Positions 3,755-30,799 of a stretch of 48,892 nt of DNA are shown in pieces. The DNA lies in assembly GCA_013360495.1 (NCBI GenBank), contig JABWBM010000001.1, forward strand, positions 1-48,892, given 5' to 3'. The translations under genes were made by a program, and so were the position numbers. The first letter of the stretch is position 1, and every line of letters begins with the position of its first letter. This DNA comes from Planctomycetaceae bacterium (lineage in GTDB: Bacteria > Planctomycetota > UBA8742 > UBA2392 > JABWBM01). Under the pieces are notes generated by a model. That model was not told where the DNA came from. It was given only the letters and a program-made list of their open reading frames with translations, and ran no database searches.

Positions 3755-3824
3755 GTAGCGCCATGCGCCCTCGCATGGCGTCCTATCATTCGATTATCGG
3801 TCACGCGAGGGCGCGTGACGCTAC
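3755..3824. repeat. Family-2 nested-palindrome intergenic repeat
   Basis: The sequence reads GTAGCG-CCATGCG-CCCT-CGCATGG-spacer-GTCACGCG-AGGG-CGCGTGAC-GCTAC. It has terminal GTAGCG/CGCTAC inverted repeats and two internal hairpins. Confidence 0.85.
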
Positions 3825-3923
3825 AGACGCGAGGCATCTTGTCAAACGTTCGCCTCAGCGCGAATCATCCGTAAAGTGTACGAAATGTGATGCCAGAGTG
3901 AAAGACGAACCGGGGGAAAGGCG

Positions 3924-5378
3924 TTACCACTTCGAGAGCGTATTGACGAAGCCGTCGAGGATGGTGCGGACGGAGCCGCGCACGTCATTGACTACGACCG
4001 CGAAGGCGTAGCGTTTGCCGGCCTTGGTGTCGATGTAACCCGAGAGCGCGCCGACTTTGTTAATGTAGCCGGTCTTGGCGAAAACTCTGCCATTGGTCAA
4101 GTCGCCCGTGAGACGCCGCTCCAGCGTGCCGGTGGAGCCGGCAACCGCGAGGGAATTCTTGAACACCGCGAAATCCTTGCGTTTGCTCATGTATTGAAGT
4201 AGCGAAGCGAGGGTGCGCGTCGTCACGCGGTTGGTGTCGGCGAGTCCGCTACCGTCGCGAATGACAAGACCGTCCACGGGCAGGCTGGCGTTCTTCAGGA
4301 ACGCTTGCACCGCTTTCGCCCCGCCGGTGAAGCTCCCCTCGCCGGCCTTCCTTGCGCCGAGGATACGGAAGAGACATTCGGCATAAAGATTTTGACTGTC
4401 TGTATTGGTGACAAAGAGCGTTGCCGGAAGGTCAGAGACGTGCCGCGCCGCGAGTTCAAAACCGTTGAGTTCATCGGCGGAGAAGTCCTTACGCTCGACG
4501 CCGCCGTTGATGGCGATGCCTTCCTTGCCAAGCACTTCGGCTAAAACCTTCGCGAAGAATGCCGCCGGGTCGTGGACGGTGCATTCGCCCTGATAGGCGG
4601 CGCGCTGGTTCGCGACCTTGCCCCACAGTGAGAGCGTGTTGGAATCGCGCGGCCGCGTCCAGCCGACAAGGGGGTCGGCCCTACCGCTAATGGTCTGCAC
4701 GCTGCCCTCGAAGGTGGCGTAGCGGGTTTCAGGAACGCAAGCGATGCGGGCGGCTTCGCCGCTCTTGCCCGGGGTGACGGTGATGGTGAGGCAGTTGTCG
4801 TTGAGGCAGAGCGCCGAGACCTCTGCGGTGTACCATTTCAGATATTGATCGGCGGGCCAGTCGGGGTGGAAGGAAGCGCCGCTGAAATACGAGTCATCGA
4901 AGAGGAGCTTTCCGCGAACTTTGCTGATACCCTTCTTGCGAAGCTCCTTTGCCATTTCGCGCAGCACGAAGGTGGCGTCGCCGTTGTGGAATCGCCCGGA
5001 GATGTTGGGGTCGCCGAAGCCCACGAGCACGAGGTCGCCGTCAAGCTCGCCGCCCCGGATCGTTCCATGGGTACGAATCTCGGTGCGCAATTCGAAGTTC
5101 TCGCCAAGCTCACACAGCGCGGCTGCCGTGGTGAATAGCTTCATGTTGCTCGCGGGGGTCAGAGCCGTGTCGGCGTTGTGGCTATAGACGGTTTTGCCGG
5201 TGTCGAGGTCAATGACGACCGCGCCCGAGCGGGTTTCTTTGCCTGCCTTGGAGGGGGCAAGGGGAGCGCCAAGAGCTTGCTCCATGGTTTGCCCGGCTGC
5301 GATGGCCGGGGCGGCAGGTTCGACCGCGACAAGAAGAATGGTGGCGACGAAGGTCAAACGGACGAGCAGTCGGGTCAT
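3924..5378 (-). CDS. dacB: D-alanyl-D-alanine carboxypeptidase/endopeptidase (PBP4, peptidase S13)
   Basis: It has an N-terminal signal peptide and the SxxK (PASNMKL), DGSGL and KTGY motifs. The ~480 aa length matches PBP4-type enzymes. Confidence 0.85.
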   Translation of the reverse strand: MTRLLVRLTFVATILLVAVEPAAPAIAAGQTMEQALGAPLAPSKAGKETRSGAVVIDLDTGKTVYSHNADTALTPASNMKLFTTAAALCELGENFELRTEIRTHGTIRGGELDGDLVLVGFGDPNISGRFHNGDATFVLREMAKELRKKGISKVRGKLLFDDSYFSGASFHPDWPADQYLKWYTAEVSALCLNDNCLTITVTPGKSGEAARIACVPETRYATFEGSVQTISGRADPLVGWTRPRDSNTLSLWGKVANQRAAYQGECTVHDPAAFFAKVLAEVLGKEGIAINGGVERKDFSADELNGFELAARHVSDLPATLFVTNTDSQNLYAECLFRILGARKAGEGSFTGGAKAVQAFLKNASLPVDGLVIRDGSGLADTNRVTTRTLASLLQYMSKRKDFAVFKNSLAVAGSTGTLERRLTGDLTNGRVFAKTGYINKVGALSGYIDTKAGKRYAFAVVVNDVRGSVRTILDGFVNTLSKW

Positions 5379-13856: not shown

Positions 13857-15404
13857 TCATGCTTTGGGCGGTAAAGGTTGAGTCATCCCGCGCAGACAGC
13901 CGTAGCCGCGTCCATGATGGGTTGCGAAGAACGAACGCGAGCGCTCGACAAGGTCACCTAGCTCGTGTTTGTCCGGGTTTGATTGTGCGAGGCGCAGAAC
14001 GTTTCGGTAGTGCATCATCCGCATCACGATGTAGTACAGCCTCGTTCCCTCGGCCCGGTCGAGCACTTCCTGTGTGTCGCGGATAAATCTGCGCGACGCG
14101 CCGAAATTACCCGATATGCGGTGGAGTTGCGCCGAAAGCAGGGGGCGCAGCAGGTCGATGTCGGCGTTCCGCGAGTCGAAAAGCCCCTGCCCATCGAATT
14201 CCTTCAAGAGAACACCCGGATTTGTCCGCTTGTTCGAACGAAGGAGCGCCAGCAGTCCCTCCGCGTACGCGGCAAAGAGCGGGCCAAGATGCATCTGTTG
14301 CTGTCGCGCGAGCGGGGCGAAATCCTTGAGAGCGAGCGTCAACGCGCCCTTGTCTTCGAGCCAGCATGCCCACACCAGCGGCACATGGGAATAGACGATG
14401 CGATAGCGCGCGCCCACGGAGTCGCAATGTTCAGGGAGTTGCCGGCAAAAGCTGTCAAAGGGCAATGTTCCGGCGTAGAGGTCGAGGACATCCAACATCG
14501 GGCGGTACGTACCCGCGCTTTCCTCGTCGAAGACCGAGAATGCCTGCCGCACGAGCGCCTGGGCTTCCCGCATGTCCCCCAACTCGAGGCTCAGGAGTCC
14601 GCTCATCAGCGCGACGCGACCGTAGGCCGGCTCATTCCGCATCGTCTCGAACAGAGCGAGAGCGGCATTGGCGAAACGCTTGGCCTCATAGCCGAGCCGC
14701 GCTCCACGCAGATTGTCGATCAGATAATGGAGATGGTCGAGAATCTCCGGGTCGGCGTAGTTGCGCGACGTCATCAAGCGAAGCACCAATCCACGGTAAA
14801 TCGCGGCCGCGCGATCCAGATTGCCGAGTGTGAATTCGTGATGGGCGTGGAGCCGGTCGAGCCGGACTTTGAGTTGCTCGTCGTCGCAGAACTCCGAAAT
14901 CTGCAACGCGCCGGCCAGCAGGCGCTTGGCGGCGTTGACGTCGTATTGATCGAAGGCGTGTTGGAGCTGCTCGAGCAATTGCGCGAGCACGGGGTTGGCG
15001 TCGGCGCTCAAGCGTTCGCGTGTCTCGCGCCACGCGAAAAGCGCGTCGTTGAGTTTTCGAAACACTTTCAGATGGTCTTTGCCCGCCAGCGCGCCGAGCC
15101 TCATGCGCGCGATGGCGTTCATTGATTGCACCAGTTCGAGCAGCGTCTCCGCGCGCTCGGTCTGGGACCAGCGCACGTCGGTCAAGTAGGGTTCTCCTTC
15201 GCCAAGCAGCAGCCACGCCGGGTTGACATCGAGTTCGTTCGCTAGTCCTGCGCAAAAATCGGCGGGCAGGCGCCGCCCTTTCAAATAGTAGTGGATGTTG
15301 GTGCGCGAGGTTTGGGTCGCGCGGGCGATGTCGGCTTGGGAGTGCCGCTTGAGCAACTCCTCGAAGCGCGAGCGGATGGCGTTGTCATGGGCCTTGATAT
15401 CCAT
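13857..15404 (-). CDS. XRE-family helix-turn-helix regulator with long TPR-like helical-repeat C-terminal domain
   Basis: The N-terminus reads RFEELLKRHSQADIARATQTSRTNIHYYLKGRRLPADFCAGLANELDVNPAWLLLGEG, an HTH_XRE pattern. The remaining ~440 aa are helical, with repeated G(N/D)xxxAxxxY/F-type TPR-like spacing (FTLGNLDRAAAIYRGL, LELGDMREAQALVRQAF, ISGNFGASRRFIRD). I prefer ATG 15404 to GTG 15425. Confidence 0.7.
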   Translation of the reverse strand: MDIKAHDNAIRSRFEELLKRHSQADIARATQTSRTNIHYYLKGRRLPADFCAGLANELDVNPAWLLLGEGEPYLTDVRWSQTERAETLLELVQSMNAIARMRLGALAGKDHLKVFRKLNDALFAWRETRERLSADANPVLAQLLEQLQHAFDQYDVNAAKRLLAGALQISEFCDDEQLKVRLDRLHAHHEFTLGNLDRAAAIYRGLVLRLMTSRNYADPEILDHLHYLIDNLRGARLGYEAKRFANAALALFETMRNEPAYGRVALMSGLLSLELGDMREAQALVRQAFSVFDEESAGTYRPMLDVLDLYAGTLPFDSFCRQLPEHCDSVGARYRIVYSHVPLVWACWLEDKGALTLALKDFAPLARQQQMHLGPLFAAYAEGLLALLRSNKRTNPGVLLKEFDGQGLFDSRNADIDLLRPLLSAQLHRISGNFGASRRFIRDTQEVLDRAEGTRLYYIVMRMMHYRNVLRLAQSNPDKHELGDLVERSRSFFATHHGRGYGCLRGMTQPLPPKA

Positions 15405-15465
15405 GGGCAAGACCTTCGACAGCACCCGTTCAATGTCGTTATATCGTTCTCTAATCGAAACGTAA

Positions 15466-15489
15466 CCTTAATATATGGCATATATAAGG
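15466..15489. promoter_or_regulatory. Candidate operator: near-perfect palindrome CCTTAATATATG-G-CATATATAAGG in the divergent promoter region
   Basis: Read directly. It lies in the 222-bp AT-rich gap between the HTH regulator (minus strand) and the He_PIG operon (plus strand). The core TATATG-G-CATATA is perfect, and the arms extend to CCTT/AAGG with one bulged base. Confidence 0.4.
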
Positions 15490-15626
15490 CAATTGATAGC
15501 ACTATACACGAATCAGAACAGGAAACATAGTGTTCTTTTTTAGGAACACCGACCCGCCCGCAGGGCGCCTCGAACATGGCTCCCAACCTCCAATTGCGGT
15601 ACTTTTGATGGCACGGGAGGCGAACC

Positions 15627-17600
15627 ATGGCGAGAATCATGTTGGCAGCGATCGTGCCGATGTTGTGCGCGTGCGGCCTCTGGGCGCAAGGCGCGCTCAC
15701 GATCGAAACGACCGAACTCGACCCCGCCGTTATCGGCGTGCCCTACACCTCGTCACCGCTCCAGGCGTCAGGTGGGTCGGCCCCGTATACGTGGACGGCG
15801 ATGCCAAATTTATTTGCGCCCTGGGTTGCCGTCGACGTGACGCCCTCGGGCGACTCTGTCATCGTCGGGGCTCCGTCGAAACCGCTCCTACTTTCGGTTC
15901 CCGCCGATGCATTCTTCGAAGTCACCGTCACCGACAACTCCGTCCCGCCTCTCACCGTGTCGAAAACCATCTTCGTCAGCGTCAGCGAGGGGTTTACCTT
16001 CGGCTTCGACGCGCTCCCCGACGCCATCGTCGCGGAACCCTATTCCTTCGACATCGCCACCGAGGGAGGCGTCGGGGGAATCACCTTCACGCCGGTCTCG
16101 GTCTTGCCGCCATGGTTGACGCTTTCCGGTTCGACGCTGTCAGGAACGCCTGCCACGGTGAAAACCGAATCGTTCATCATCAAGGTTGTGGATAGTTCCA
16201 CTCCCCCCAAGACCATCCAGGCCAACATCTCCTTGAAGGTCATAAAAAAGCTGGTCGTCACCGGCGTGGACGAGCTTTTCGGTGTCGAGGGCGAGGCGCC
16301 GTCGTCCACGAAGCTCGTCACGAAGATCCTCTGGGGCGTAACACCCTATTCGGTCGAGGCGACCAATCTTCCGCCCGGCATTTCGCTCGACATCCCCGGC
16401 CCCTACGTTTACGGAGAGTCGAAAAGCGTCGTGGTGCTCGGGACGCTCGAGGAGGGCAGCGCCTCCCCTACGCCCTACAAGGTTTCCTGCACCGTCAGCG
16501 ACAGTTCCAACCCGCCGCAAGTCTTCGCCTTCAAAGCGGACTTCTTCGTCTACGACAAGCTGGAGCTGCCCGCGACCATCGAGTTCCCGGGCATCGTCCA
16601 AAACCAGTTCTTTGCAACCGATCCGTACTCCCTGACCGGCGGCACGGCGCCCTTCACTTTCGCACCGAGCGGTATGCCGCCGTCCATCAAGCTCGTTCAG
16701 GACGATGACACGACCTTTCACTTTCAGGGCACGGTCGATTCGAGCGTCAGCTTCGATCTCGTCGTGTCGGACTCCAGCAAACCCGCGCAGAAGGGAACCA
16801 TCGTCGTCGCCATTGACGCCTACGACAAGCTGCTGATCCTCACCAGCACGTTGCCCACCATCGGCGCCGGACAGGCATACGAGGTTGAACTGGTCGGAGC
16901 GGGCGGCACCGCGCCATATTTTTGGCAGACCGAAGGACTCCCCGCGGGTATCGAACTCGTGCAGGACGCGGACCAGTGGAAGCTCGCGGGCGTCGCATCC
17001 GATGCGGCCATCGGCGCGTACGCAGTATCGCTCACCGTCACGGACAGCGCCGACGATGGTGTCCAGAGCGCGCAAACCAAACTCGCGCTCATCGTGAGCG
17101 AGGCGAGCGAAACATCACCGCTCACGATGATCACCACCTTTCTGCCCCCGGCGACAACGGGCGAGCCTTATGTGGCGATGGTCGAGGCAAGCGGCGGAGC
17201 GAAGCCTTACGAGTGGTCGGTCATTGGCCTGCCCGAAGGTATCGAGTCGTATGTGGAGGACGATCGCCTGATCGTCGCCGGCACGCCCGAGGGCGAGGCC
17301 GCTACATTATACGTCAAGGTAACGGCGCGGGACGCATCGAACCCGCAGCAGTTCGCCGACGTCACGTACACCTTGTTCGTGAAGGCGGGCGAAGACGCAC
17401 CCGAAGTTCCCAGCGACACCGGTTTCACCGCCGCACCAGCGGACGTTCTTCTGGGCGCCGCAGCCGCCGGCTGTTCGCTCGCGGGCGACGGCGTGGGACA
17501 TTGTGTCCTCGTTGCGCTGCTGGCGCTCGTGGCCGGAATGCGAGTTTTCAAGCGTCTTGGCCGGACACGAACCGCGTTTGAACGGGCTTGCTGTCTTTGA
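15627..17600 (+). CDS. Exported surface protein A1 with multiple He_PIG-type (putative Ig / cadherin-like) repeats and an AGCS-TM-basic C-terminal tail
   Basis: GGGAGG lies 6 nt before the ATG and there is a signal peptide (...CGLWAQG). Repeats follow the pattern LPxxxxGxPYxxxxxAxGGxxPYxW...LPxGIxL...GTP...TVTDS. The C-terminus reads AAAGCSLAGDGVGHCVLVALLALVAGMRVFKRLGR. Confidence 0.8.
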   Translation: MARIMLAAIVPMLCACGLWAQGALTIETTELDPAVIGVPYTSSPLQASGGSAPYTWTAMPNLFAPWVAVDVTPSGDSVIVGAPSKPLLLSVPADAFFEVTVTDNSVPPLTVSKTIFVSVSEGFTFGFDALPDAIVAEPYSFDIATEGGVGGITFTPVSVLPPWLTLSGSTLSGTPATVKTESFIIKVVDSSTPPKTIQANISLKVIKKLVVTGVDELFGVEGEAPSSTKLVTKILWGVTPYSVEATNLPPGISLDIPGPYVYGESKSVVVLGTLEEGSASPTPYKVSCTVSDSSNPPQVFAFKADFFVYDKLELPATIEFPGIVQNQFFATDPYSLTGGTAPFTFAPSGMPPSIKLVQDDDTTFHFQGTVDSSVSFDLVVSDSSKPAQKGTIVVAIDAYDKLLILTSTLPTIGAGQAYEVELVGAGGTAPYFWQTEGLPAGIELVQDADQWKLAGVASDAAIGAYAVSLTVTDSADDGVQSAQTKLALIVSEASETSPLTMITTFLPPATTGEPYVAMVEASGGAKPYEWSVIGLPEGIESYVEDDRLIVAGTPEGEAATLYVKVTARDASNPQQFADVTYTLFVKAGEDAPEVPSDTGFTAAPADVLLGAAAAGCSLAGDGVGHCVLVALLALVAGMRVFKRLGRTRTAFERACCL

Positions 17601-17626
17601 AAGTGCCTGCTTTGAAAGGACGTGTT

Positions 17627-18586
17627 ATGAAAAGCGCGAAATATCTTGCCGGAGCGTTTGGGAGCGCCGCCTTTGTATTAGCGCTGGGCATTTCACAAAG
17701 CTTGAACATTCAATCCAGCGGCCTTCAGGCGCAGGAAGCCAGCGGCGGCGATGCAGGCACGCTGGCATCGGGCGGCGGCTCCAGCGGCTCGAAAACCGAA
17801 AAAACGGTAGACCCGCAGTTGTTTCGCTCCGTAAGCGACGACGGAGCGGATGCGCCCACAGGACGTGGTTTTTTGCGTATGCCGGCGAGTGAGCCGGTCG
17901 CAAGTTCGGCTCCGGAGCCCGAAACCGGCGAGCCTCCGGCGGAACCGTCGGAACCTGAAACGGAAAGCGGGGGCGCCCACCAATTTTTCGACGCGCCGGT
18001 GGCCGGCAAGTGCGTATTCGTCATCGACGTATCCTTGTCGATGAGCATAACCGACGTGGGCGCCGGCGAGGACTATGACGGCAACGTCGTCAGTAACCTT
18101 TCCCGCCTGATGCTGGTCAAGACGGAACTGATCAACTTTCTCAAACAAAGCGACGAGGGCGACTTCTTCGACATCGTCTGGCTCGCGGGGTCCTCAATTT
18201 GCGGACCCAACACGGACGTCTGGGCAGGAGAATTGGTGCAATGCACCGAGGAGAACCGCGAAGCGGCGATCGAAGCCGTGAAATCCCAAACGATGTGGTG
18301 GGGAACGCCGACGTGGAAGGCGTTACAGCGCGCATGTCTCGAGTATGAAGACGACCTGAGCGTGATGGTGCTGCTGACGGACGGCACGCCTTTCCCCATG
18401 GGAGAAGGTGAGTGGGGCGACTACTCCCACGTCAACGCCATCCACAACGATTTTCCCGGGTGGTTCGCCGGGAAGAAGGACAACGGTTGCAAGCTGATCG
18501 GCGTCCATGTGGGGAGTTGCCCCTACGCCGGAAGCTTCATGCAGGACTGGTGCGCCAGCAACGACGCGACATATGTCCACAAGTAG
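17627..18586 (+). CDS. Secreted von Willebrand factor A (vWA) domain protein B1
   Basis: It has a signal peptide (MKSAKYLAGAFGSAAFVLALG), a Gly/Ser-rich and acidic Pro-rich linker, the MIDAS motif VFVIDVSLSMS (DxSxS) and VMVLLTDG. I prefer ATG 17627 (AAAGGA upstream) to the track start 17588, which overlaps A1. Confidence 0.8.
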   Translation: MKSAKYLAGAFGSAAFVLALGISQSLNIQSSGLQAQEASGGDAGTLASGGGSSGSKTEKTVDPQLFRSVSDDGADAPTGRGFLRMPASEPVASSAPEPETGEPPAEPSEPETESGGAHQFFDAPVAGKCVFVIDVSLSMSITDVGAGEDYDGNVVSNLSRLMLVKTELINFLKQSDEGDFFDIVWLAGSSICGPNTDVWAGELVQCTEENREAAIEAVKSQTMWWGTPTWKALQRACLEYEDDLSVMVLLTDGTPFPMGEGEWGDYSHVNAIHNDFPGWFAGKKDNGCKLIGVHVGSCPYAGSFMQDWCASNDATYVHK

Positions 18587-18613
18587 CCGCACCGCCGTCG
18601 AAAGCGGCGATCG

Positions 18614-21600
18614 ATGACGAAAGGCTTTTCTATGGGCGCGCTCAAGTTCATGATTCTCCTTATCTTCTGTGCGAGCGGCCTTTTCGCTCAAGGCACGCTT
18701 ACCATCGAAACCGAGAAGCTTGAGCCCGCTGTCGTCGGCGTGCCGTACACATCGTCGCCGCTCAAGGTTTCCGGCGGGACTGCGCCGTACACCTGGTCGA
18801 TCAACGGCGCGGCGCAATCGCCGTGGGTGACGCTTCAAAAGGCAGGGGGCGAAACGGTGCTGACCGGCATGCCCGAGAAGCCGCCGGTTCTGTTTTGGGG
18901 GTACCCCGCTCTCTTGACTGTGACATTGGCCGTGACCGACAGTTCGTCGCCGCCGGGAAGCATGGTCGCAGCCGTATACCTTTCGATCAGCGAAGGGTTG
19001 GTTTTCGGTTTTGACGAACTGCCTACTCCGGTCGTCGACCAACCTTACAGCGTCTCGATCAACCCCATTGGCGGCGTCGAACCGTACACGATCTCTGTCA
19101 CGTCCACTTTGCCGCAATGGCTGACTTTTTCCGGCTCGACGTTAAGTGGAACGCCGCCCGAGGTTACGACCGGCGACGCGGTGTCGATCAATGTCACGGA
19201 CAGTTCGAGTCCCCCGAAAGTTATTCAGGCGAAATTCGGGCTCGCGGTGAAGAATAAGATTTCGGTTTTCAATATTGCCACGCTCTCGGGCTTTGAAGGC
19301 AAGCTGCCGTCTTCCGAAACAGTCGCAAACATCACGGGTGGACTCGCGCCATACACCATCGACGCGACAGGACTACCCGCTGGACTCTCCCTTTGGACGG
19401 TGCTTCCGGGGACAAAGTTTCCCGGGGGCGGTACGAGCCTCCCCTTAGGCGTTTGGACGCTGAACGTCGGAGGCGTCCTTGACCCTGGAAGCGGTCTGCC
19501 TGTACCCTATGTTGTCACCTATACCGTCACCGACAGCGCCAATCCGCCACAAACTGTAACCTTCGAGGCTGAATTCATCGTCTATGGGAAGCTCGATCTT
19601 CCTTCCGCCATTACTTTCGATGGTATGGTGACTGGAGAAGATTTTGAAACTGGCGTCTATACTTTCGACAGCGGTGGCTGGGCGCCCTTCACGTTGACGC
19701 CGGGCGGCATGCCCGGCGGCGTGACGCTCGTTCAGGACGATGGCGCGAACTTTCACTTCGAAGGCGTCATCGCGAAGGACGCCGCCTTTACCCTTGCCGT
19801 AGAAGACTCGAGTAACCCGCATCAGACGGGGAGTTTGACCATCATTCTCGATGCAGCTGATAAATTGTCGATCCTGACAGGCACGCTACCGCCTGCCATT
19901 GTCGGTGAAGCGTATGATGTCGCTCTCGCCATCAACGGCGGAATGGCGCCCTATGCGCTGGAGGCGCAAGGTCTGCCCGAAGACATCGAACTCGGCGAAG
20001 ACGCGGGACAATGGAAGCTCACGGGCAGCGCCTCCGACGCCGCCATCGGCGTGTATGCCCTATCCCTCACTGTTACTGACAGCGGCGCCGGCATCGTCCA
20101 AACCGTGCATACCAAAATCGCCCTCATGGTGAACAAGCCAGGCGATGGCTCGCCGCTCTTCCTTTCGACGACCTTTCTCCCCGTCGGGACGACGGACGAG
20201 CAGTACGCCGCAACCGTCGAGGCGAGCGGCGGAGTCGCGCCATATGAATGGTCCGTCGTCGGCTTGCCGTTGGGCATCGAAACGTATGTTGAAGACGATC
20301 GCTTGATCCTCACGGGAACGCCGGAAATCGCCACTCCCATCGCGCATGTTGAAATCGTGGTGCGCGACGCGGACGACCCGCAGCAGGCGGCGAGTGCGAT
20401 CTACCCATTGGTCATAAAAACGAGCGAAAGCGCCGCTCAATCGGACCTCGCATTCACTTCCGGAAACGCCCTGATGAACGCTGCCGCAGCAGCAGGCTGT
20501 TCGATGTCAGGCGGGTCGTCGGGCGGAATTGCCATGACGCTGCTTGCGTTCATAGTCGCGGCGGCCTGTCTCTACGAGCGCGGCCGGAAACCCCGTAGCG
20601 CCCCGATTCATCGTGGCGGATCTCTTTGGAAACTTTCGCCTCGGCCTGGCTCGGTGCGCAGCACCTTGCCTGATCGGCCTCGCGCCCTCAAGCGAGACCG
20701 ATCCTCGTGTGAAAGCACATGTATGAAAGCTGCACAATTTCTCACGGCAATGGTTGGAGTCGCGGCTTTTGCGCTCGCATCCGGCGCATCCTATGGCTTT
20801 GATTTCCCATCCGATCGCTTGCTCGCCGAACACATTCTCGCTGCCGGCGATTCGACGGGCGGAAGTGGCGGCGCCTCGAAAGGAACCGGCGACGGCAAGG
20901 GGTCTGATACCGGTGGCGGAAAAGATTCTGGCTCTGGTGGTGGCAAAAGCTCGGGCGGTGGCGGCGGCTATGGCGCGCCAGCGCAGGGAACCTCGAAATC
21001 GGAGGAACCCCTCGATCCACTATTGTTCCGCTCCGCGAACAGCGACGGAGCGGACGCGCCCACAGGACGCGGCATTCTGCGTATGCCGTCAAGCGACGGC
21101 TCGGGCAATAACGCGCCACCGACAGAGGGCAGCGAGCCTCCAGTCGAACCGTCCGAGCCGGAAATCGAGGGCGGCGTTGACGACCCTCCCTTTTTTGATG
21201 AGCCGATCGAAGGCAAAGCGGTCTTCATCATCGATATGTCTTTGTCCATGAAAGTCACCGACGTCGGCGGCGGCGAGGATTACGACGGCAACGTGGTAGG
21301 CAGCCTCACGCGCTTGATGCTCGTCAAAACCGAACTGATCAACTTTTTGAAGACCATCGACGACAACTTCTGGTTCGACATCGTCTGGCTCGCCGGCACC
21401 TCCGAAGGTCAGGGCGGATCTGCCGGCGATCATTTTGGAGGTTACAGCCAATCGCCCAACACCGACGTGTGGCAGGGCGAATTGGTGCAATGCACCGACG
21501 ACATTCGCCAGGCCGCCATTGAAGAGGTCAAAAACAAGGGGACATGGCCGCTCACGCCCACGTGGAAGGCTCTCTGGCGCGGATGCCAGGAATACCCGGA

Positions 21601-21835
21601 CGACCTCGACATCATGGTGCTGCTCACCGACGGAGCGCCGATTCCAGCGGGCGCGGGCGAATGGGGATCGTCGAATCACATGCAAGCGATCCTGAACGAT
21701 TTTCCCGGCTGGTTTGCGCCGAAGAAGGCAGGAGGCTGCAAGCTGATCGGCATTCATGTCGGTCAGAACGCAAGCGCCGGATCGTTCATGCAGGATTTCT
21801 GCGCGCAGAACGACGGCAAATACATTCATAAATAA
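18614..21835 (+). CDS. A2-B2: second He_PIG-repeat surface protein fused in frame to a second vWA protein (single 1073-codon frame)
   Basis: Residues 1 to ~660 parallel A1, including the signal peptide, the repeats and the tail AAAAGCSMSGGSSGGIAMTLLAFIVAAACLYERGRKPRS. No stop follows. After a ~45-codon linker, the frame continues through an internal ATG (20723) into a full B1 paralogue. Confidence 0.75.
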   Translation: MTKGFSMGALKFMILLIFCASGLFAQGTLTIETEKLEPAVVGVPYTSSPLKVSGGTAPYTWSINGAAQSPWVTLQKAGGETVLTGMPEKPPVLFWGYPALLTVTLAVTDSSSPPGSMVAAVYLSISEGLVFGFDELPTPVVDQPYSVSINPIGGVEPYTISVTSTLPQWLTFSGSTLSGTPPEVTTGDAVSINVTDSSSPPKVIQAKFGLAVKNKISVFNIATLSGFEGKLPSSETVANITGGLAPYTIDATGLPAGLSLWTVLPGTKFPGGGTSLPLGVWTLNVGGVLDPGSGLPVPYVVTYTVTDSANPPQTVTFEAEFIVYGKLDLPSAITFDGMVTGEDFETGVYTFDSGGWAPFTLTPGGMPGGVTLVQDDGANFHFEGVIAKDAAFTLAVEDSSNPHQTGSLTIILDAADKLSILTGTLPPAIVGEAYDVALAINGGMAPYALEAQGLPEDIELGEDAGQWKLTGSASDAAIGVYALSLTVTDSGAGIVQTVHTKIALMVNKPGDGSPLFLSTTFLPVGTTDEQYAATVEASGGVAPYEWSVVGLPLGIETYVEDDRLILTGTPEIATPIAHVEIVVRDADDPQQAASAIYPLVIKTSESAAQSDLAFTSGNALMNAAAAAGCSMSGGSSGGIAMTLLAFIVAAACLYERGRKPRSAPIHRGGSLWKLSPRPGSVRSTLPDRPRALKRDRSSCESTCMKAAQFLTAMVGVAAFALASGASYGFDFPSDRLLAEHILAAGDSTGGSGGASKGTGDGKGSDTGGGKDSGSGGGKSSGGGGGYGAPAQGTSKSEEPLDPLLFRSANSDGADAPTGRGILRMPSSDGSGNNAPPTEGSEPPVEPSEPEIEGGVDDPPFFDEPIEGKAVFIIDMSLSMKVTDVGGGEDYDGNVVGSLTRLMLVKTELINFLKTIDDNFWFDIVWLAGTSEGQGGSAGDHFGGYSQSPNTDVWQGELVQCTDDIRQAAIEEVKNKGTWPLTPTWKALWRGCQEYPDDLDIMVLLTDGAPIPAGAGEWGSSNHMQAILNDFPGWFAPKKAGGCKLIGIHVGQNASAGSFMQDFCAQNDGKYIHK
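20723..21835 (+). CDS. Possible independently initiated vWA protein B2 (internal start within the A2-B2 frame)
   Basis: From ATG 20723 the product MKAAQFLTAMVGVAAFALASG... aligns with B1 from its Met1, including its own signal peptide, the DPLLFRS..DGADAPTGRG.LRMP motif, the MIDAS motif FIIDMSLSMK and LLTDG. The upstream sequence TGAAAGCACATGTATGAAAGC is homologous to the B1 upstream sequence TGAAAGGACGTGTTATGAAAAGC. Confidence 0.45.
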   Translation: MKAAQFLTAMVGVAAFALASGASYGFDFPSDRLLAEHILAAGDSTGGSGGASKGTGDGKGSDTGGGKDSGSGGGKSSGGGGGYGAPAQGTSKSEEPLDPLLFRSANSDGADAPTGRGILRMPSSDGSGNNAPPTEGSEPPVEPSEPEIEGGVDDPPFFDEPIEGKAVFIIDMSLSMKVTDVGGGEDYDGNVVGSLTRLMLVKTELINFLKTIDDNFWFDIVWLAGTSEGQGGSAGDHFGGYSQSPNTDVWQGELVQCTDDIRQAAIEEVKNKGTWPLTPTWKALWRGCQEYPDDLDIMVLLTDGAPIPAGAGEWGSSNHMQAILNDFPGWFAPKKAGGCKLIGIHVGQNASAGSFMQDFCAQNDGKYIHK

Positions 21836-21906
21836 CAGCATTATTCACCATCCGGCGGGGCGGTCCCGCGGGTGATTCTCGTTGTGAGTATTTCAGGAGG
21901 AAAGTG

Positions 21907-22038
21907 ATGAAGCATCTGAATCTCGAAACTCTGTCCGGCGTTATTGGTGGAGCGGCTACAGTGTACACCGGCACAATTACATTCACCGGCTCCCCGACGA
22001 CATCCGGCTGCTTGAAGCGCAATGGACTGCCTTGCTAG
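21907..22038 (+). CDS. Unannotated 43-aa precursor peptide with double-glycine-type leader (bacteriocin/pheromone-like)
   Basis: AGGAGG (21895-21900) lies 6 nt before the ATG. The translation is MKHLNLETLSGVIGG / AATVYTGTITFTGSPTTSGCLKRNGLPC followed by a stop. The leader matches L(-12), L(-7), V(-4) and GG(-2,-1) of the LSxxELxxIxGG consensus. A strong terminator follows 30 nt downstream. The ORF is below the ORF-track length cutoff. Confidence 0.6.
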   Translation: MKHLNLETLSGVIGGAATVYTGTITFTGSPTTSGCLKRNGLPC

Positions 22039-22068
22039 TTCCGGTAAATGCACAGGCTCAACACCACA

Positions 22069-22097
22069 GGAGAGGGCTAGCCCTCTCCTTTTCTCTT
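22069..22097 (+). terminator. Rho-independent terminator after the small ORF
   Basis: GGAGAGGG-CTAG-CCCTCTCC forms a perfect 8-bp GC-rich stem and is followed by TTTTCTCTT. An A-rich tract on the other side may give weak bidirectional function for the convergent M48 gene. Confidence 0.75.
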
Positions 22098-22115
22098 GTG
22101 AGTGCACGACAAACG

Positions 22116-27273: not shown

Positions 27274-28968
27274 TCAAAACGCCCGGTTCTTGCGCCGTCT
27301 GCGTATACGGAGTAGCGCAGCCGCGCCGATGGCGCCAAGATAGATGGACGTGATGCCCGGCGCGGCAACCGCGGATTGCGCCGAGCAACCGGCGTTTTGG
27401 CCGAAGAGCACGGACTCGGGCGTTTCAACGTCGGCGCCGCCATCGTCGCCATCGTCCGGTTCTTCGTAGGTGAATGCGTTTGGCAGGCTGGCGGTGCCGG
27501 CGGAATTTTCGACTTCGACGGCTACCAAGTCCCCAACCGTTCCATTGGGAACGATCGCGGTGATTTGCGTATCGCTATCGACATTGAAATTCGCGTCCAG
27601 CGTTCCAAACCGGACTTCAATATTCGCCTCAACATCGCAGAGAAATCCCGTTCCCGTGATGATGACGTCGGAACCGATAAGGGCTTCATCGGGGGATACG
27701 CTGACGATCGTTGGGGCCGTGGTGCATGGATCGTAGTCGAAGCCGCCTGCCACTTCGGTATCTCCGTCCGAGGACTCAAACGTGAGGTCGACCGTTCCGG
27801 ATGGGGACTGCGGTGGTGTTACGACCGTGCGACTGAAGTCCGATCCTCCAACGACGGGCGCTATCGCGGTTCCGCCGCCGAAGCTCACGCCTGTGAGGTT
27901 TGTAAGCAATATGCCATCGATGGTCAGGGTGTCGCCGCCCCCCATCACGCCGCTGGATGGGGAGATACTGTCGATCACCGGTCCGGGAAATCCGCCAAAG
28001 TTGATGACGAGACCGCTGCCGGCCGTGGTGCCATTGACGACGTCCGCGAGTGTTCCGACCCAACCGGCGACCCCGGCGTCCGTGTTCCATGCGGCGTCGG
28101 CATCGGTCGCTGCCTGCTGCACGTCGCCCGCGGTGACACCCGCGCAAATGGCGAAAGCGATGATCGCCGTGTCGCCGATGGCGGGGAGACTGATATCGGG
28201 AGCCGTCATGGCGGTAAAAATTTCTTGTCCAGGCGCGCCGATATCCGCGTCAATGCCGGCATCGGTAAAAAGAGCGATTATTTCGCCGGCATCGGACGCT
28301 GGAAACGTCATTTCATAATCCACGTTTTGCGGAGTGCCGCTCAAAAGCGCGAGGCCGAACTGATCGGAGCCCGCTCCATCGAAATGCCGGATGAGCGGAA
28401 CCCCGCCAGCGCTGAGATCCTCTGTTTCGTCGTCAGTATTGCTGGTGGCGCCGCCGACATTAAAATTAACCCAGAGTGTCGGACTGAGATCGTTGGCGAT
28501 CGCGGCGGTAGCCGTAATCTTAAAGACCACGATAATGTACCCGCTCGTCGACGTGGCATCGGCAAAGGTGAATTGTTCCACTTCAATACCGGACCCGCCA
28601 TCCGCGGTATTATCCCACTTGCAGAAGGTCGTCGCGTAGTCGCCAACGGCTGGCCCGTCGGTAATTGCGGTGAGATTGCTCCAGTCAACGGGATCGCCGT
28701 TAGCGCCGCTATATACAACATTGCCAGAGGTTTGATCCGCCAAGCTCAACGTCGCGGCTTCGATGACATCCGCAACGCCGTTGAACGATGCGCCCCATCC
28801 CGGTGACGCGCCTCCGGTGTCGTCCACGGTGAGGAGCAACGCGCCGGCACCCGGGTCGCCGCCGCCATCGACCTGCGATGCTGTTTGGGCCGACAGGAAG
28901 CTGGAACAGAAAATCCCAATGGCCAATGCCACAAACCGGGTTTTGTTATGCCAATACTTACGAAACAT
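27274..28968 (-). CDS. Exported surface protein with IPT/TIG-like Ig domains and an AGCS-TM-basic C-terminal tail
   Basis: GGAGGA lies upstream of ATG 28968 (MFRKYWHNKTRFVALAIGIFCSSFLSAQT, a signal peptide). Two IPT-like modules are present (PVIDSISPSSGVMGGGDTLTIDG and PTIVSVSPDEALIGSDVIITGTGF). The C-terminus reads GQNAGCSAQSAVAAPGITSIYLGAIGAAALLRIRRRRKNRAF. Confidence 0.75.
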   Translation of the reverse strand: MFRKYWHNKTRFVALAIGIFCSSFLSAQTASQVDGGGDPGAGALLLTVDDTGGASPGWGASFNGVADVIEAATLSLADQTSGNVVYSGANGDPVDWSNLTAITDGPAVGDYATTFCKWDNTADGGSGIEVEQFTFADATSTSGYIIVVFKITATAAIANDLSPTLWVNFNVGGATSNTDDETEDLSAGGVPLIRHFDGAGSDQFGLALLSGTPQNVDYEMTFPASDAGEIIALFTDAGIDADIGAPGQEIFTAMTAPDISLPAIGDTAIIAFAICAGVTAGDVQQAATDADAAWNTDAGVAGWVGTLADVVNGTTAGSGLVINFGGFPGPVIDSISPSSGVMGGGDTLTIDGILLTNLTGVSFGGGTAIAPVVGGSDFSRTVVTPPQSPSGTVDLTFESSDGDTEVAGGFDYDPCTTAPTIVSVSPDEALIGSDVIITGTGFLCDVEANIEVRFGTLDANFNVDSDTQITAIVPNGTVGDLVAVEVENSAGTASLPNAFTYEEPDDGDDGGADVETPESVLFGQNAGCSAQSAVAAPGITSIYLGAIGAAALLRIRRRRKNRAF

Positions 28969-29125
28969 GAAACATCCTCCGCTTGGAAGGGCGCAAGAAT
29001 AGCCGGGAGGGGGAGTCGAGGAAGAGTCATTTTGTATTCTTTTCTCTGCCCGTGCCACAAAATCTTTTGTGTTCGCAGCCGAACGGTCTTGCGCCCTAAC
29101 AAGCGGTTTCGGAGCGTCCGCTCGC

Positions 29126-29134
29126 TGCTATACT
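29126..29134 (+). promoter_or_regulatory. Extended -10-like box TGCTATACT 10 nt upstream of the lspA ATG (leaderless candidate)
   Basis: Read directly, and no SD lies between the box and ATG 29145. An identical 9-mer occurs at 34405-34413 before msrA. Confidence 0.35.
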
Positions 29135-29144
29135 CCAAATCGTC

Positions 29145-29867
29145 ATGAGCGAAACGCCTGAAAAGCCATCGTCGTTGTTCCAGCGTCTCGTCGGCACCAA
29201 AGTCAGGTTCTGGGTCGTCGTGCTCGTTCTGCTCGCCGCCGATCTGGCGTCGAAGGAATGGGCGGAGAGCGCGTTGACTGTTAAAACGCCGTTCATTCAT
29301 GCTGGCGTTTCAAGAATCGAGCATGACAGCGGCCGCCACGGCGAAGAAGGCGTCGAGTTCATCCCCGGCGCACTCCATTTCAAATACGCCGAGAACTACG
29401 GCGCCGCGTTCTCCATCGGCTCCGACGGCTCGATCCCCTTCGCTATCCTGAGCATCGGCGTGCTCGGCATCCTCTTCTATATTGTCGCAGGCACACCGCG
29501 CGAACGCTGGTTCACGTTGCTCTGCTACGCGCTGATCACCGGCGGGGCGCTCGGCAACCTCCACGACCGGCTTTTCCACAAGACCGCTGACGTGCGCTTC
29601 GCCTTCGGGCCGGACGAGCCGAACCCCAACTACGGCAAGGAAACGACGGCGGTACGCGATTTCCTCTATTGGCCCTTCGATATCCCGGTCTACTCCACGG
29701 TCGCCCTCGACCCCGGACAGCCGCCTCGCAAGTTCCCGATTTTCAACGTCGCGGATTCCGGCATCACGGGCGGCGTTATCGGCCTGATCATCGTGGCGAT
29801 CTTCACACCTGACCCGAGAAAGAAGCCGAAGGAAACACTGCCTGCCACAGGAGTGGCAGCCTCATGA
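29145..29867 (+). CDS. lspA: Lipoprotein signal peptidase (signal peptidase II)
   Basis: It carries DLASKEWA, NYGAAFS, GGALGNLHDRL, VRDFLYW and FNVADSGITGGVIGLII, the LspA conserved blocks, plus an internal insertion. Confidence 0.85.
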   Translation: MSETPEKPSSLFQRLVGTKVRFWVVVLVLLAADLASKEWAESALTVKTPFIHAGVSRIEHDSGRHGEEGVEFIPGALHFKYAENYGAAFSIGSDGSIPFAILSIGVLGILFYIVAGTPRERWFTLLCYALITGGALGNLHDRLFHKTADVRFAFGPDEPNPNYGKETTAVRDFLYWPFDIPVYSTVALDPGQPPRKFPIFNVADSGITGGVIGLIIVAIFTPDPRKKPKETLPATGVAAS

Positions 29868-30799
29868 GCATCGACCTCTCCGTCAATGTCGGCTCGCTCG
29901 CGCTGCACAACCCGCTCATGACTGCCAGCGGCTGTTCAGGCTACGGCAAGGAACTCGCCGCTTATGATGATCTCTCGTGGCTCTCGGCGATTGTGGGGAA
30001 GTCCATCAGCAGAGAGCCGCGCCTCGGCAATCCTTATCCGCGCACCTGCGAAACGCCGTCGGGGATGATCAACGCCATCGGCCTGCCCAACGAGGGTTGG
30101 GAGAGCTACACGCGAAATACTTTGCCGCTGATGCGCGAGTTGGTTCGTGGCAAGCCGACAAAGATCGTGCTCAACATCGTCGGCCACGACCTCGATGAAT
30201 ACACATGGGTCGCCGAACGCGCTAACGATGAATCTGACATCGCGGCCGTCGAATTGAATCTGAGCTGCCCGAACGTCGCGGGTGGGCTGCAGTTCTCCAC
30301 CACCGCCGATGGTTGCGAAAAGCTGGTGAAGGCAGTTCGCAAGGTGCTGAAACTTCCATTGATCGCGAAGCTCTCGCCCAACGTCACGAGCGTCGCGGAC
30401 ATCGCCCGCGCCGCCGAGGCGGCTGGCGCGGATTCCTTAAGTTTGATCAACACTGTGCTCGGCATGAACGTGGACTGGCGCAAGCGCAAGGCATTGGTAG
30501 CCAACGGCATGGGTGGCCTGAGCGGTCCGGCGATCAAGCCCATCGCGCTGCGCTGTGTGTACGAGGCATGCAAAGCGGTAAAGATTCCAGTGATCGGCAT
30601 CGGCGGCATCTGCACCGCCGACGACGTGCTCGACTTCATGGTGTGCGGGGCAAGCGCCGTGCAACTCGGCACCGTGCTCTTTGTCGAGCCGGACGCGCCC
30701 CAGCGCATCGCGCGCGACCTGAAAGAACGTATGCGCGAGGCAAAAGTCGAGAAGTTGTCGAGCCTGATCGGGACGTTACGCGCGCGCGAAGGCGCATAA
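29864..30799 (+). CDS. pyrD: Dihydroorotate dehydrogenase (class 1-type catalytic subunit)
   Basis: It carries NPLMTASGCSGYG, AVELNLSCPNV, GGLSGPAIKPIALR and VIGIGGI. There is an ATGA overlap with lspA. Confidence 0.88.
   Translation: MSIDLSVNVGSLALHNPLMTASGCSGYGKELAAYDDLSWLSAIVGKSISREPRLGNPYPRTCETPSGMINAIGLPNEGWESYTRNTLPLMRELVRGKPTKIVLNIVGHDLDEYTWVAERANDESDIAAVELNLSCPNVAGGLQFSTTADGCEKLVKAVRKVLKLPLIAKLSPNVTSVADIARAAEAAGADSLSLINTVLGMNVDWRKRKALVANGMGGLSGPAIKPIALRCVYEACKAVKIPVIGIGGICTADDVLDFMVCGASAVQLGTVLFVEPDAPQRIARDLKERMREAKVEKLSSLIGTLRAREGA

Follow-up and report, generated by a model that had tools for sequence, protein, structure and literature searches.

A recurring planctomycete cassette of an XRE-HTH/TPR-like regulator, vWA/He_PIG surface proteins and a double-glycine-leader peptide

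The 48.9-kb stretch of planctomycete DNA analyzed here, referred to below as the window, contains a cassette in which a regulator gene lies divergent from genes for He_PIG surface proteins (A), vWA proteins (B), and a small double-glycine-leader peptide, and we hold this anatomy with high confidence. The cassette is new and narrowly distributed, and it is built of known part types. Its host is a planctomycete, in agreement with the preliminary description, which had placed it outside the Firmicutes. The best explanation, which we favor tentatively, is a planctomycete-specific cell-surface cassette with a dedicated regulator and a built-in exported peptide, for which a signaling role is plausible. 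In the literature searched, no description was found of peptide genes set among vWA/He_PIG adhesins and XRE-TPR or sigma54-EBP regulators.

Organization of the locus

The regulator gene (13857-15404, minus strand) diverges from a co-directional plus-strand block (15627-22038) whose intergenic gaps measure 26, 27, and 71 nt. This block had been described as five closely spaced reading frames; the common direction and the gaps hold, but the block contains four ORFs, since one ORF of 1073 codons (18614-21835), free of in-frame stops, covers both A2 and B2; in it the TGA that corresponds to the stop of A1 falls out of frame. Four other independent assemblies are 100% identical to the window at the DNA level, the fused ORF included, and an assembly artefact is ruled out as the source of the fusion since four independent runs reproduce the sequence. 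The tight gaps fit one operon, as do a strong ribosome-binding site (AGGAGG, 21895-21900, plus strand) 6 nt ahead of the peptide ATG and an intrinsic terminator (22068-22098, plus strand) with a 9-bp stem containing 6 GC pairs, followed by TTTTCTCTT. This is the best plus-strand terminator of the block, which bears out the earlier claim of a strong terminator after the small ORF.

Within the 71 nt that separate B2 from the peptide gene lies a GC-rich hairpin (21849-21874, plus strand) that is not statistically significant and may be an attenuator or an RNA-stability element. Analogous hairpins are present in L006, L022, and L028, the related loci described below, and hairpins between vWA and peptide genes are found in 3 of 4 cassettes, with z values of -0.7 to -2.3, none of them statistically compelling.

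The regulator and the block are separated by a 222-bp divergent promoter region (15405-15626), previously noted as AT-rich and as carrying a near-perfect palindrome, and both properties were verified. The region is 47.7% GC, and its core 32.8%, compared to 59.8% for the window, and the near-palindrome CCTTAATATATGGCATATATAAGG (15466-15489) is unique, occurring once in the window where shuffles expect 0 matches. It is near-perfect rather than perfect because its arms are one base out of register. It overlaps -10-like TATA elements and is a candidate operator; we infer that the regulator would bind this AT-rich region and thereby control the operon. An operator shared among the paralogous cassettes was considered and dropped because the palindrome is missing from the intergenic regions of L006 and L022, an absence that also counts against a signaling circuit. 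A sigma54 promoter was ruled out for the divergent region of the window, with no site found at 2 or fewer mismatches. Exact TGGCAC-N5-TTGC sites precede the vWA paralogs of L005 and L020, and L007 has a site with 1 mismatch.

A regulator with a helical-repeat solenoid

The regulator is a 515-aa protein in which an HTH (residues ~1-66) is followed by a flexible linker, two long conserved helices (79-152), and a TPR-like alpha-solenoid reaching residue 507. Its N-terminus gave weak, sub-threshold matches to the XRE-type families HTH_19 (E=2.8e-5), HTH_3, HTH_31, and Phage_CI_repr, and in a comparison with PDB profiles a phage CI repressor matched at E=0.012. Pfam found no TPR match in the protein. 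The AlphaFold2 model (pLDDT 83.7, pTM 0.72) is all-helical, with an N-terminal five-helix bundle and ~11 hairpins beyond residue 110, and the TPR/SUPR proteins matched by the solenoid in Foldseek are led by MalT domain III (PDB 1hz4, E=4e-5, TMt 0.68). The proposed architecture of an XRE-type HTH joined to TPR-like repeats is upheld in this way, the HTH by sub-threshold matches and the solenoid by AlphaFold2 and Foldseek. MalT domain III and similar SUPR-type solenoids share with the regulator C-terminus, of which they are the best match, the placement of a helical-repeat ligand-sensing domain in a transcription factor. MalT, however, is a STAND ATPase whose LuxR HTH is C-terminal, while the regulator has no NTPase domain and an N-terminal XRE-type HTH.

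The regulator family comprises at least 259 clusters at E<=1e-30, every one of them full length. Distant homologs adjoin Ig-repeat surface proteins, and no double-glycine-leader ORFs were found beside them; this lack of a nearby peptide gene counts against a signaling circuit. In a rough neighbor-joining tree without support values, in which the topology is not resolved, 3 of the 4 peptide-linked regulators group together.

Surface proteins and their C-terminal tag

A1 (15627-17600, plus strand) has a signal peptide, He_PIG/Ig-like repeats, and a C-terminal tag consisting of AAAAGCS, a TM helix, and a basic tail. Its paralog A2 (18614-20722, plus strand; 48% identity) is the first part of the fused ORF and carries an AAAAAGCS plus TM tag followed by a 45-aa basic linker. 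Both pass the Pfam gathering cutoff of 24 for He_PIG (PF05345), A1 with 56.1 bits (E=5e-15) and A2 with 45.9 bits (E=8e-12), confirming the He_PIG domains initially assigned to them.

The tripartite tail (invariant-Cys motif, TM helix, Arg-rich cluster) is found on A1, A2, and all A homologs, on the Ig proteins beside distant regulators, and on a TIG protein of the window (27274-29058); in the A proteins and the Ig-repeat neighbors of distant regulators its consensus is [AG][AG]GC[SA] followed by the TM helix and Arg cluster. Both the tripartite design and the invariant Cys are shared with MYXO-CTERM-type signals, the published survey of which leaves out Planctomycetes. The tails of the window differ in falling below the model cutoffs, at 11.9-13.8 bits versus 20-27 for the MYXO-CTERM, JDVT-CTERM, and Synerg-CTERM models, and the window contains no CPBP-type sorting protease. 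Only the L002 tail scores past the Synerg-CTERM and GlyGly-CTERM cutoffs. A rhomboid encoded at 38651-39649 is under the rhombosortase cutoff (41 vs 84).

B1 (17627-18586, plus strand) has a signal peptide, a disordered Gly/Ser/Pro/Glu-rich region of ~100 aa that holds a conserved LFR..DGADxP(S/T)GR motif, and a vWA domain with a DxSxS MIDAS motif. B2 (20723-21835, plus strand), the second part of the fused ORF, is 51% identical to its paralog B1 and has kept its own Met and signal peptide. The vWA identity proposed for these proteins is sub-threshold in Pfam (VWA_2, 20.8 bits, under the cutoff of 27) and is supported by the fold and the MIDAS motif: residues 116-319 of the B1 model mostly have a pLDDT >90, Foldseek matches them to the ITIH1 vWA domain (E=5e-11) and also to the SpaC pilus adhesin, PilB, and VWF A1, and D-x-S-x-S is invariant in the alignment of the B family. 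When genome and metagenome contigs were searched with B1 or its alignment, all of the matches (L008-L019) were distant vWA relatives that had no peptides. Between cassettes B is 45-60% conserved and A 27-32%, while the cores of the peptides are hypervariable. That A and B are strictly paired, and that A2 and B2 are fused in one gene, suggests that the two proteins cooperate.

A similar arrangement is seen in the sortase-pilus operons of Gram-positive bacteria, which encode a vWA tip adhesin (SpaC/RrgA) and Ig-fold stalk pilins. The likeness lies in a vWA/MIDAS gene that adjoins an Ig-repeat protein with a C-terminal sorting tag, and SpaC and PilB are among the structural matches of B1. The cassette differs from these operons in that it has no sortase or LPXTG, B has no sorting tag, the host is diderm, and the cassette shows no sign of polymerization.

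A family of double-glycine-leader peptides

The last gene of the block (21907-22038, plus strand; 43 codons) encodes a precursor with the 15-aa leader MKHLNLETLSGVIGG followed by the 28-aa core AATVYTGTITFTGSPTTSGCLKRNGLPC, which contains two Cys. The small ORF is conserved, as part of an eight-member double-glycine-leader family in related planctomycete MAGs (one peptide each from the window, L006, L007, and L028, and two each from L022 and L021/L027). Every leader is exactly 15 aa long, ends in GG, and is hydrophobic at -4, -7, -12, and -15, the class-II pattern (V-4, L-7, L-12, and M-15 in the window), and a hydrophobic Sec signal is absent from all eight. A regular expression for the leader, run over 321 kb in 6 frames, matched members of the family only, with zero background. 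The L006 peptide passes TIGR01847 (bacteriocin_sig) with 16.5 bits versus a cutoff of 15.7; the window peptide and four others have no reported match to this model, and the window peptide has no Pfam/NCBIfam match even at E<=10, which counts against a signaling circuit. A word-index search with the peptide alignment retrieved nothing beyond the sequences already known. From the leaders we consider it probable that the peptide is exported. The cores are 17-41 aa long, polar, and Thr/Gly-rich, not hydrophobic or amphipathic, with two Cys in most, and their short, non-hydrophobic character is pheromone-like.

This conservation effectively refutes the reading of the small ORF as a product of chance in an otherwise ordinary adhesin operon, a reading that we find scarcely credible. 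The ORF has just 43 codons, its GC3 of 0.61 is under the 0.68-0.78 of its neighbors, and the window copy has no HMM match. However, eight paralogs or orthologs share an identical leader length and a conserved pattern, the scan for the leader had no background, the ribosome-binding site and terminator are strong, and gene callers predicted the small ORF independently in other assemblies.

The leader invites comparison with peptides exported by PCATs (ComC/ComAB, BlpC, PlnA, EntF, colicin V/CvaAB), which likewise have a 15-aa double-glycine leader, hydrophobic residues at -4/-7/-12/-15, and a small, variable core. The several paralogs per genome found here, and the member passing TIGR01847, are further points of likeness. 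The differences are in context: the cassette loci have no nearby PCAT, accessory protein, histidine kinase, or immunity gene, and the setting of the peptide genes is a vWA/He_PIG cassette with an XRE-TPR or sigma54-EBP regulator. Another double-glycine/PCAT system for comparison is that of HetC in Nostoc (PMC10986499). A Pfam scan of the 25 ORFs of the window found no ABC transporter, C39, MFP, or Opp protein, in line with the earlier remark that no exporter or processing enzyme is visible there. A C39/ABC exporter, MFP, or oligopeptide importer was not found in 28 related loci either, and this counts against a signaling circuit.

Recurrence of the cassette

The set of genes co-occurs in three further loci, as the preliminary description had anticipated for a genuine system. 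L006, L022, and L028, all from another planctomycete MAG, each contain a regulator homolog together with vWA, one or more double-glycine peptides, and He_PIG, in shuffled gene order. In each, the regulator homolog (26-34% identity, E=1e-41 to 1e-57) is transcribed divergently from the vWA, peptide, and He_PIG genes. All 4 vWA/He_PIG cassettes with a regulator homolog have at least one double-glycine peptide, versus 1 of 5 without (Fisher one-sided p ~0.04, computed on paralogs that are not independent). In the window the peptide gene closes the operon, 6.3 kb from the regulator; in L006 and L022 it lies one gene away, and only in L028 does it face the regulator, as the first gene. In the L007 cassette, the place of the regulator homolog beside the peptide is taken by a sigma54 enhancer-binding protein, which counts against a signaling circuit. 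The evidence as a whole is drawn from two or three closely related uncultured lineages, a further point against such a circuit.

Comparison with RRNPP systems

The HTH and TPR-like repeats, together with a small peptide gene, had been read as the RRNPP architecture, an assignment that our results do not sustain. RRNPP receptors have an N-terminal XRE-type HTH, which is absent in Rap, and the pro-peptide gene adjoins or overlaps the receptor gene. The pro-peptides, which include lipoprotein-type and leaderless forms, are exported by Sec or PptAB and matured outside the cell, and the mature peptide is re-imported by Opp and bound in the TPR groove. To our knowledge RRNPP pro-peptides are not double-glycine-leader/PCAT substrates, and the earlier reading had combined two separate paradigms, RRNPP receptors and double-glycine/PCAT peptides.

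The likeness to RRNPP systems (PlcR/PapR, NprR/NprX, Rgg/SHP, ComR/XIP, AimR/AimP) consists of an N-terminal XRE-type HTH fused to a TPR-like sensor, a regulator divergent from its presumed target operon, and a small peptide gene within that operon. The closest case is PrgX with cCF10/iCF10; the prgQ operon that it controls codes for the aggregation adhesin PrgB, and here too, as in pCF10, the operon encodes cell-surface adhesins. True membership, in which a homologous receptor would have a cognate peptide exported by Sec and imported by Opp, is nevertheless highly improbable. Neither the RRNPP families of Pfam/NCBIfam nor PDB profiles of them matched the regulator, and although Rap, PlcR, and NprR are among its Foldseek matches, they rank 25-44 (E 5e-3 to 9e-3, TMt 0.40-0.56), a weak and generic TPR resemblance behind MalT domain III. 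The 15-aa leader is of the double-glycine rather than the Sec type, adjacency of regulator and peptide gene is inconsistent, with up to 6.3 kb between them, and for most of the regulator family no peptide gene lies nearby. In addition, no Opp system is seen in the window, and the host is a diderm planctomycete.

Possible roles of the peptide

The cassette could operate as follows. A would be exported and anchored to the surface by its C-terminal tag, with B as a secreted partner. An exporter of the C39-peptidase type, with its gene elsewhere, would cut the 43-aa precursor behind Gly15 and export it, and the released 28-aa peptide, probably disulfide-looped, would serve as the cassette's own extracellular signal, feeding back on expression of the adhesin operon. 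The route of this feedback would be the neighboring TPR-type regulator, reached directly once the peptide is taken up, in an RRNPP-like manner, or else indirectly. That the peptide is a signal is our preferred reading, held with some reserve, and direct binding of the peptide by the regulator is doubtful. The absence of an immunity-like small membrane ORF or a modification enzyme beside any of the peptides counts in favor of a signaling circuit. Counting against it, the two L021/L027 peptides are stand-alone and far from regulators and cassettes, and double-glycine pheromones known to us act via membrane histidine kinases, not cytoplasmic TPR proteins.

The most serious alternative, though on balance an unlikely one, makes the peptide a small antimicrobial of the class-II bacteriocin or microcin-like kind, co-expressed with adhesins, so that the cell would attach and then kill, with the regulator sensing some other cue. 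Conserved leaders joined to hypervariable cores, two Cys in most members, and several paralogs per genome are typical of bacteriocin loci. The TIGR01847 match of the L006 leader agrees with this, as do the NCBI annotation of the L021 peptide as 'bacteriocin' and the tandem peptides of L021/L027 that stand alone. On the other hand, none of the 8 peptide genes adjoins an immunity gene or exporter, the polar Thr/Gly-rich cores are neither amphipathic nor hydrophobic, and a dedicated regulator is linked to peptides in 4 of 4 XRE-TPR cassettes. We give still less credence to a role as an extracellular partner of the A/B complex, in which the peptide would be a ligand of the vWA MIDAS or a specificity determinant of kin recognition and not a transcriptional signal. 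A B-type vWA gene does lie 51-75 nt upstream of the peptide gene in 4 of 5 cassette cases, the combination of a conserved B with highly variable A and peptide cores is a polymorphic recognition pattern, and A has a MYXO-CTERM-like Cys tag in common with the kin-recognition receptor TraA. Yet a peptide is missing from half of the vWA/He_PIG pairs (B1-A2 of the window, L005, two in L020, and L021), the peptide gene is ahead of B in L028, most cores lack an acidic residue for MIDAS ligation, and the arrangement is without precedent.

Significance for Planctomycetes

Planctomycetes have an unusual cell biology and few cultured representatives. Peptide pheromone circuits are, as far as we know, almost confined to Firmicutes, with RRNPP proteins or histidine kinases as receptors, and we know of nothing comparable described for Planctomycetes. 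The present analysis defines a large, uncharacterized family of regulators associated with surface proteins (at least 259 clusters), a new double-glycine peptide family of small size, and a C-terminal sorting tag with a Cys that had so far not been catalogued in this phylum. Should the peptide turn out to be a bacteriocin and nothing more, the finding shrinks to a known class of peptide in a new genomic setting. In its fullest form, which we consider rather unlikely, the signaling reading would give Planctomycetes a system of peptide signaling or kin recognition with a double-glycine peptide exported by a PCAT encoded elsewhere, a cytoplasmic XRE-HTH/TPR-like receptor that would sense it and be convergent with RRNPP rather than homologous, a polymorphic vWA/Ig adhesion module that the receptor would turn on, and several orthogonal cassettes per genome. 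The recurring four-part cassette is a concrete candidate for peptide-controlled adhesion or self-recognition in Planctomycetes.

Organization of the operon

The regulator, a 515-aa protein with an XRE-type HTH and TPR-like repeats, is encoded on the minus strand (13857-15404), divergently from a plus-strand block that opens with the Ig-repeat surface protein A1 (15627-17600, 657 aa) and the secreted vWA protein B1 (17627-18586, 319 aa). Their paralogues A2 and B2 share a single ORF of 1073 codons (18614-21835), and the block therefore contains four ORFs, not the five of the preliminary description. The last of these is the 43-codon peptide ORF (21907-22038), with AGGAGG 6 nt 5' of it. Spacings within the block are 26, 27, and 71 nt, and the strong terminator reported after the small ORF is indeed the top-ranked plus-strand terminator in the block, a 9-bp GC-rich hairpin followed by a T-run (22068-22098). 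Housekeeping genes lie on both flanks (phoH, 7TM-HD, M48/TPR peptidase, smpB, and hemC). The 222-bp divergent gap between regulator and A1 (15405-15626) has a GC content of 47.7%, falling to 33% in its core, against 59.8% for the window. The near-perfect palindrome first described there, CCTTAATATATGGCATATATAAGG (15466-15489), is present and occurs once in the window, with 0 matches expected from shuffles; its arms are one base out of register.

At the A2-B2 junction (20570-20725), the TGA matching the stop codon of A1 is not in frame, and A2 reads on from its TM anchor through a 45-aa basic, Arg/Pro-rich linker to the B2 signal peptide. The B2 part still has a Met (20723) and a signal peptide of its own. 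The A2-B2 sequence is 100% identical across four independent assemblies, which rules out assembly error as the cause of the fusion. It is plausible that the topology is coherent, with A2 outside, a TM helix, a cytosolic basic linker, and B2 outside, and that the B2 signal peptide serves as the second TM segment of a two-pass protein. In the Rosetta-stone sense, the fusion hints at A and B acting jointly.

Surface proteins and their C-terminal tag

A1 and A2 are both over the Pfam threshold for He_PIG. The VWA_2 match of B1 is sub-threshold in Pfam; a structural model of residues 116-319 has a clear vWA fold, with pLDDT mostly above 90 and matches to ITIH1 (E=5e-11) and the pilus adhesin SpaC. 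The DxSxS motif of the vWA metal site (MIDAS) is invariant across the B family. Between cassettes B proteins are 45-60% identical and A proteins 27-32%, and B1 homologues were confined to a small number of Planctomycetes MAGs, each genome carrying several paralogues; all of our comparative evidence comes from MAGs. A further conserved feature of B proteins is the N-terminal motif P.LFR…DGADxPSGRLxLRMPA (17627-17990 and 20723-21200), followed by an EPPAEPSEP-type linker preceding the vWA domain. This region is predicted to be disordered, and the motif could serve in docking or processing.

Every A-type He_PIG protein ends in a tag composed of [AG][AG]GC[SA], a TM helix, and an Arg cluster. It is located in the window at 17480-17600, 20480-20590, and 27274-27420, the last being the C-terminal codons of the minus-strand gene for an unrelated TIG protein (27274-29058). 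Among the related loci compared with the window, the tag was found in L001, L002, L003, L006, L007, L020, L022, and L028, including on Ig proteins beside distant regulators. It resembles the catalogued tags MYXO-CTERM, JDVT-CTERM, and Synerg-CTERM in being tripartite and Cys-containing but scores mostly under the cutoffs of those models. The survey of such tags does not mention Planctomycetes, and the tag may represent a Cys-type sorting signal of this phylum that has yet to be catalogued. Near the tagged genes, no CPBP protease was seen. A rhomboid-family intramembrane protease is encoded in the window (38651-39649, minus strand), but since it is under both the GlpG and rhombosortase cutoffs (rhombosortase 41 vs 84), any connection to the tags is unproven.

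A family of double-glycine peptides

Small ORFs adjoin vWA genes in the neighborhoods of B1 homologues and, with two stand-alone copies, encode eight peptides. Their leaders and cores are, respectively, MKHLNLETLSGVIGG and AATVYTGTITFTGSPTTSGCLKRNGLPC in the window, MKVLNKKNMSKVTGG and IGGTVRSYGRLLPCWGC in L006, MKTMSEQKMQFIEGG and AMTPGKDSGPNICDADWQLNGGTCFLLP in L007, MQILGKSETLAINGG and YNTEYDITRLTMRYCHATNANPGGTGSYGGGFEGDPQIQLV in L022a, MRKINANESKLINGG and LTLTLLWKKKVCSYPTTC in L022b, MKKVSNAELKTIVGG and LKIINHGRLTTGGSGTFGNPG in L028, and, for the stand-alone pair of L021/L027, MKAISNKDMKNVIGG and ALSAGNPPTPVSCRRCSITV in peptide a and MKAISNKDMKNVVGG and ALGTAPTPTWCRRCTITL in peptide b. All eight leaders are exactly 15 residues long and hydrophobic at -4, -7, -12, and -15, the pattern that C39 peptidase domains recognize in double-glycine leaders. 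A regular expression for the leader matched only family peptide ORFs across 321 kb in 6 frames. The size of the family, its uniform leaders, and this lack of background bear out the earlier call of a genuine gene, and a chance ORF is effectively excluded. The cores are hypervariable, with two Cys near the C-terminus in 6/8. The L021/L027 peptides are tandem genes upstream of cstA (L021 209-316 and 627-728; L027 3536-3643; …CRRCSITV and …CRRCTITL), with no vWA, He_PIG, or regulator gene adjoining; one has the same sequence in the MAGs GCA_026647195.1 and GCA_023150505.1.

Recurrence of the cassette and its regulators

The co-occurrence of regulator, vWA, peptide, and He_PIG genes envisaged in the preliminary description recurs at three other loci, each with a divergent XRE-TPR homologue. 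The order is vWA, peptide, He_PIG in L006 (34% identity, E=2e-57), vWA, two peptides, He_PIG in L022 (26%, E=3e-45), and peptide, vWA, He_PIG in L028 (31%, E=9e-41). The regulator-peptide intergenic region of L028 (9073-9797) stands out for its unusual length (726 bp) and is very rich in T, including several T-runs. Cassettes without a regulator of this family comprise L007, with the order vWA, peptide, He_PIG, and those of L005, L020 (two), and L021, which have vWA with or without He_PIG and no peptide. A peptide is thus present in 4/4 cassettes with the XRE-TPR regulator versus 1/5 without it (Fisher one-sided p about 0.04, the paralogues being non-independent).

Exact sigma54 promoters (TGGCAC-N5-TTGC) lie directly upstream of vWA genes in L005 (11120-11134) and L020 (9930-9944), the only two exact matches among all loci, and a site with one mismatch (TGGCAT-N5-TTGC, about 4473-4487) is directly upstream of the vWA paralogue in L007. 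A giant protein combining SpoIIE(PP2C), TPR, and sigma54-activator domains is encoded upstream in L020; the 1434-aa protein upstream in L007 has a C-terminal sigma54-activator-type HTH and seems to resemble it. These sites and activator-type proteins suggest that TPR-containing regulators of two different classes are linked to the same type of cassette.

Pfam returned only sub-threshold XRE-type HTH matches for the window regulator and no TPR match, and NCBIfam a weak NsdA-family match; profile searching of the PDB reached phage CI repressor at E=0.012 and TPR proteins at an E of about 0.02. In a confident AlphaFold2 model from a 15-sequence alignment (pLDDT 83.7, pTM 0.72), an HTH bundle and a disordered linker precede two long, conserved helices, after which come about 11 helical hairpins. 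For this model Foldseek ranks MalT domain III first (E=4e-5, TMt 0.68), with the TPRs of LGN and kinesin light chain next; Rap, PlcR, and NprR, which belong to RRNPP, are not reached until ranks 25-44. The assignment as HTH plus TPR-like therefore stands, with no specific tie to RRNPP, the Firmicutes peptide receptors.

An exhaustive profile search places at least 259 clusters (50% identity) in the regulator family at E<=1e-30, and matches in the best 150 of these 259 span essentially the whole profile. In the three distant members inspected (L001, L002, and L003/4), about 140-150 bp separate the regulator from a divergently oriented gene for a large Ig-repeat protein of TIG or Big_5/FG-GAP type, with no vWA gene or double-glycine peptide nearby. 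This points to regulation of a tagged Ig-repeat surface protein as the family-wide common denominator, with linkage to vWA and peptide genes confined to a sub-group. A rough NJ tree, lacking support values, places three of the four peptide-linked regulators together. Throughout the family the N-terminal 210 residues (HTH and RMRLGALAGK helix) are far better conserved than the solenoid. L006 encodes a second, 512-aa paralogue (3810-5348) 1 kb from the cassette regulator, adjoining ThiS- and HATPase_c_2-like genes and 46% identical to the window regulator across its first 209 residues. In L003 (4563-9863) lspA-pyrD adjoins the Big_5/FG-GAP protein, itself divergent from a regulator homologue, and in the window (27274-30799) lspA-pyrD adjoins the tagged TIG protein; this may be a synteny remnant between surface-protein loci.

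Proposed mechanism and role of the peptide

Gene content, fold assignments, leader conservation, and recurrent linkage are established, and we propose a mechanism in which the regulator would act on the AT-rich divergent region. A would be exported and then anchored via its C-terminal tag, and B would be its secreted MIDAS partner, a reading supported by the A2-B2 fusion and by how strictly the two are paired. The peptide would be cut after Gly15, leave the cell through a C39-type exporter whose gene lies elsewhere, and act as a cassette-specific extracellular signal feeding back on the operon.

We regard a signalling role as a real possibility that falls short of probable. In its favor, the peptide is tied to dedicated TPR-containing regulators of two classes, its gene is within the regulated operon like that of an autoinducer, the cores are short and polar, and no immunity gene or modification enzyme adjoins any copy. 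Against it, no exporter or importer is visible at the examined loci, stand-alone peptides exist, some cassettes have no peptide, and known double-glycine pheromones act through histidine kinases. Direct binding of the peptide to the TPR regulator is unlikely. The peptide fits the double-glycine-leader class in every testable feature other than the match to a curated model, TIGR01847 (bacteriocin_sig), which the L006 member passes; the L021 peptide is annotated "bacteriocin" by NCBI. That these are small bacteriocins is somewhat unlikely. We consider it decidedly unlikely that the peptide serves the A/B complex as an extracellular ligand or as a specificity factor, and signalling remains the reading we prefer.

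In function, RRNPP systems come closest, the enterococcal PrgX-prgQ-PrgB circuit among them; the window system differs from these in sequence, leader type, and gene adjacency, so that RRNPP membership is not supported. Full-text searches turned up no paper tying RRNPP to Planctomycetes and a single incidental co-mention of double-glycine peptides with them. Taken with the double-glycine fit, this leads us to class the cassette as one assembled from known part types in a new combination, so far confined to two or three planctomycete lineages, all of them uncultured.
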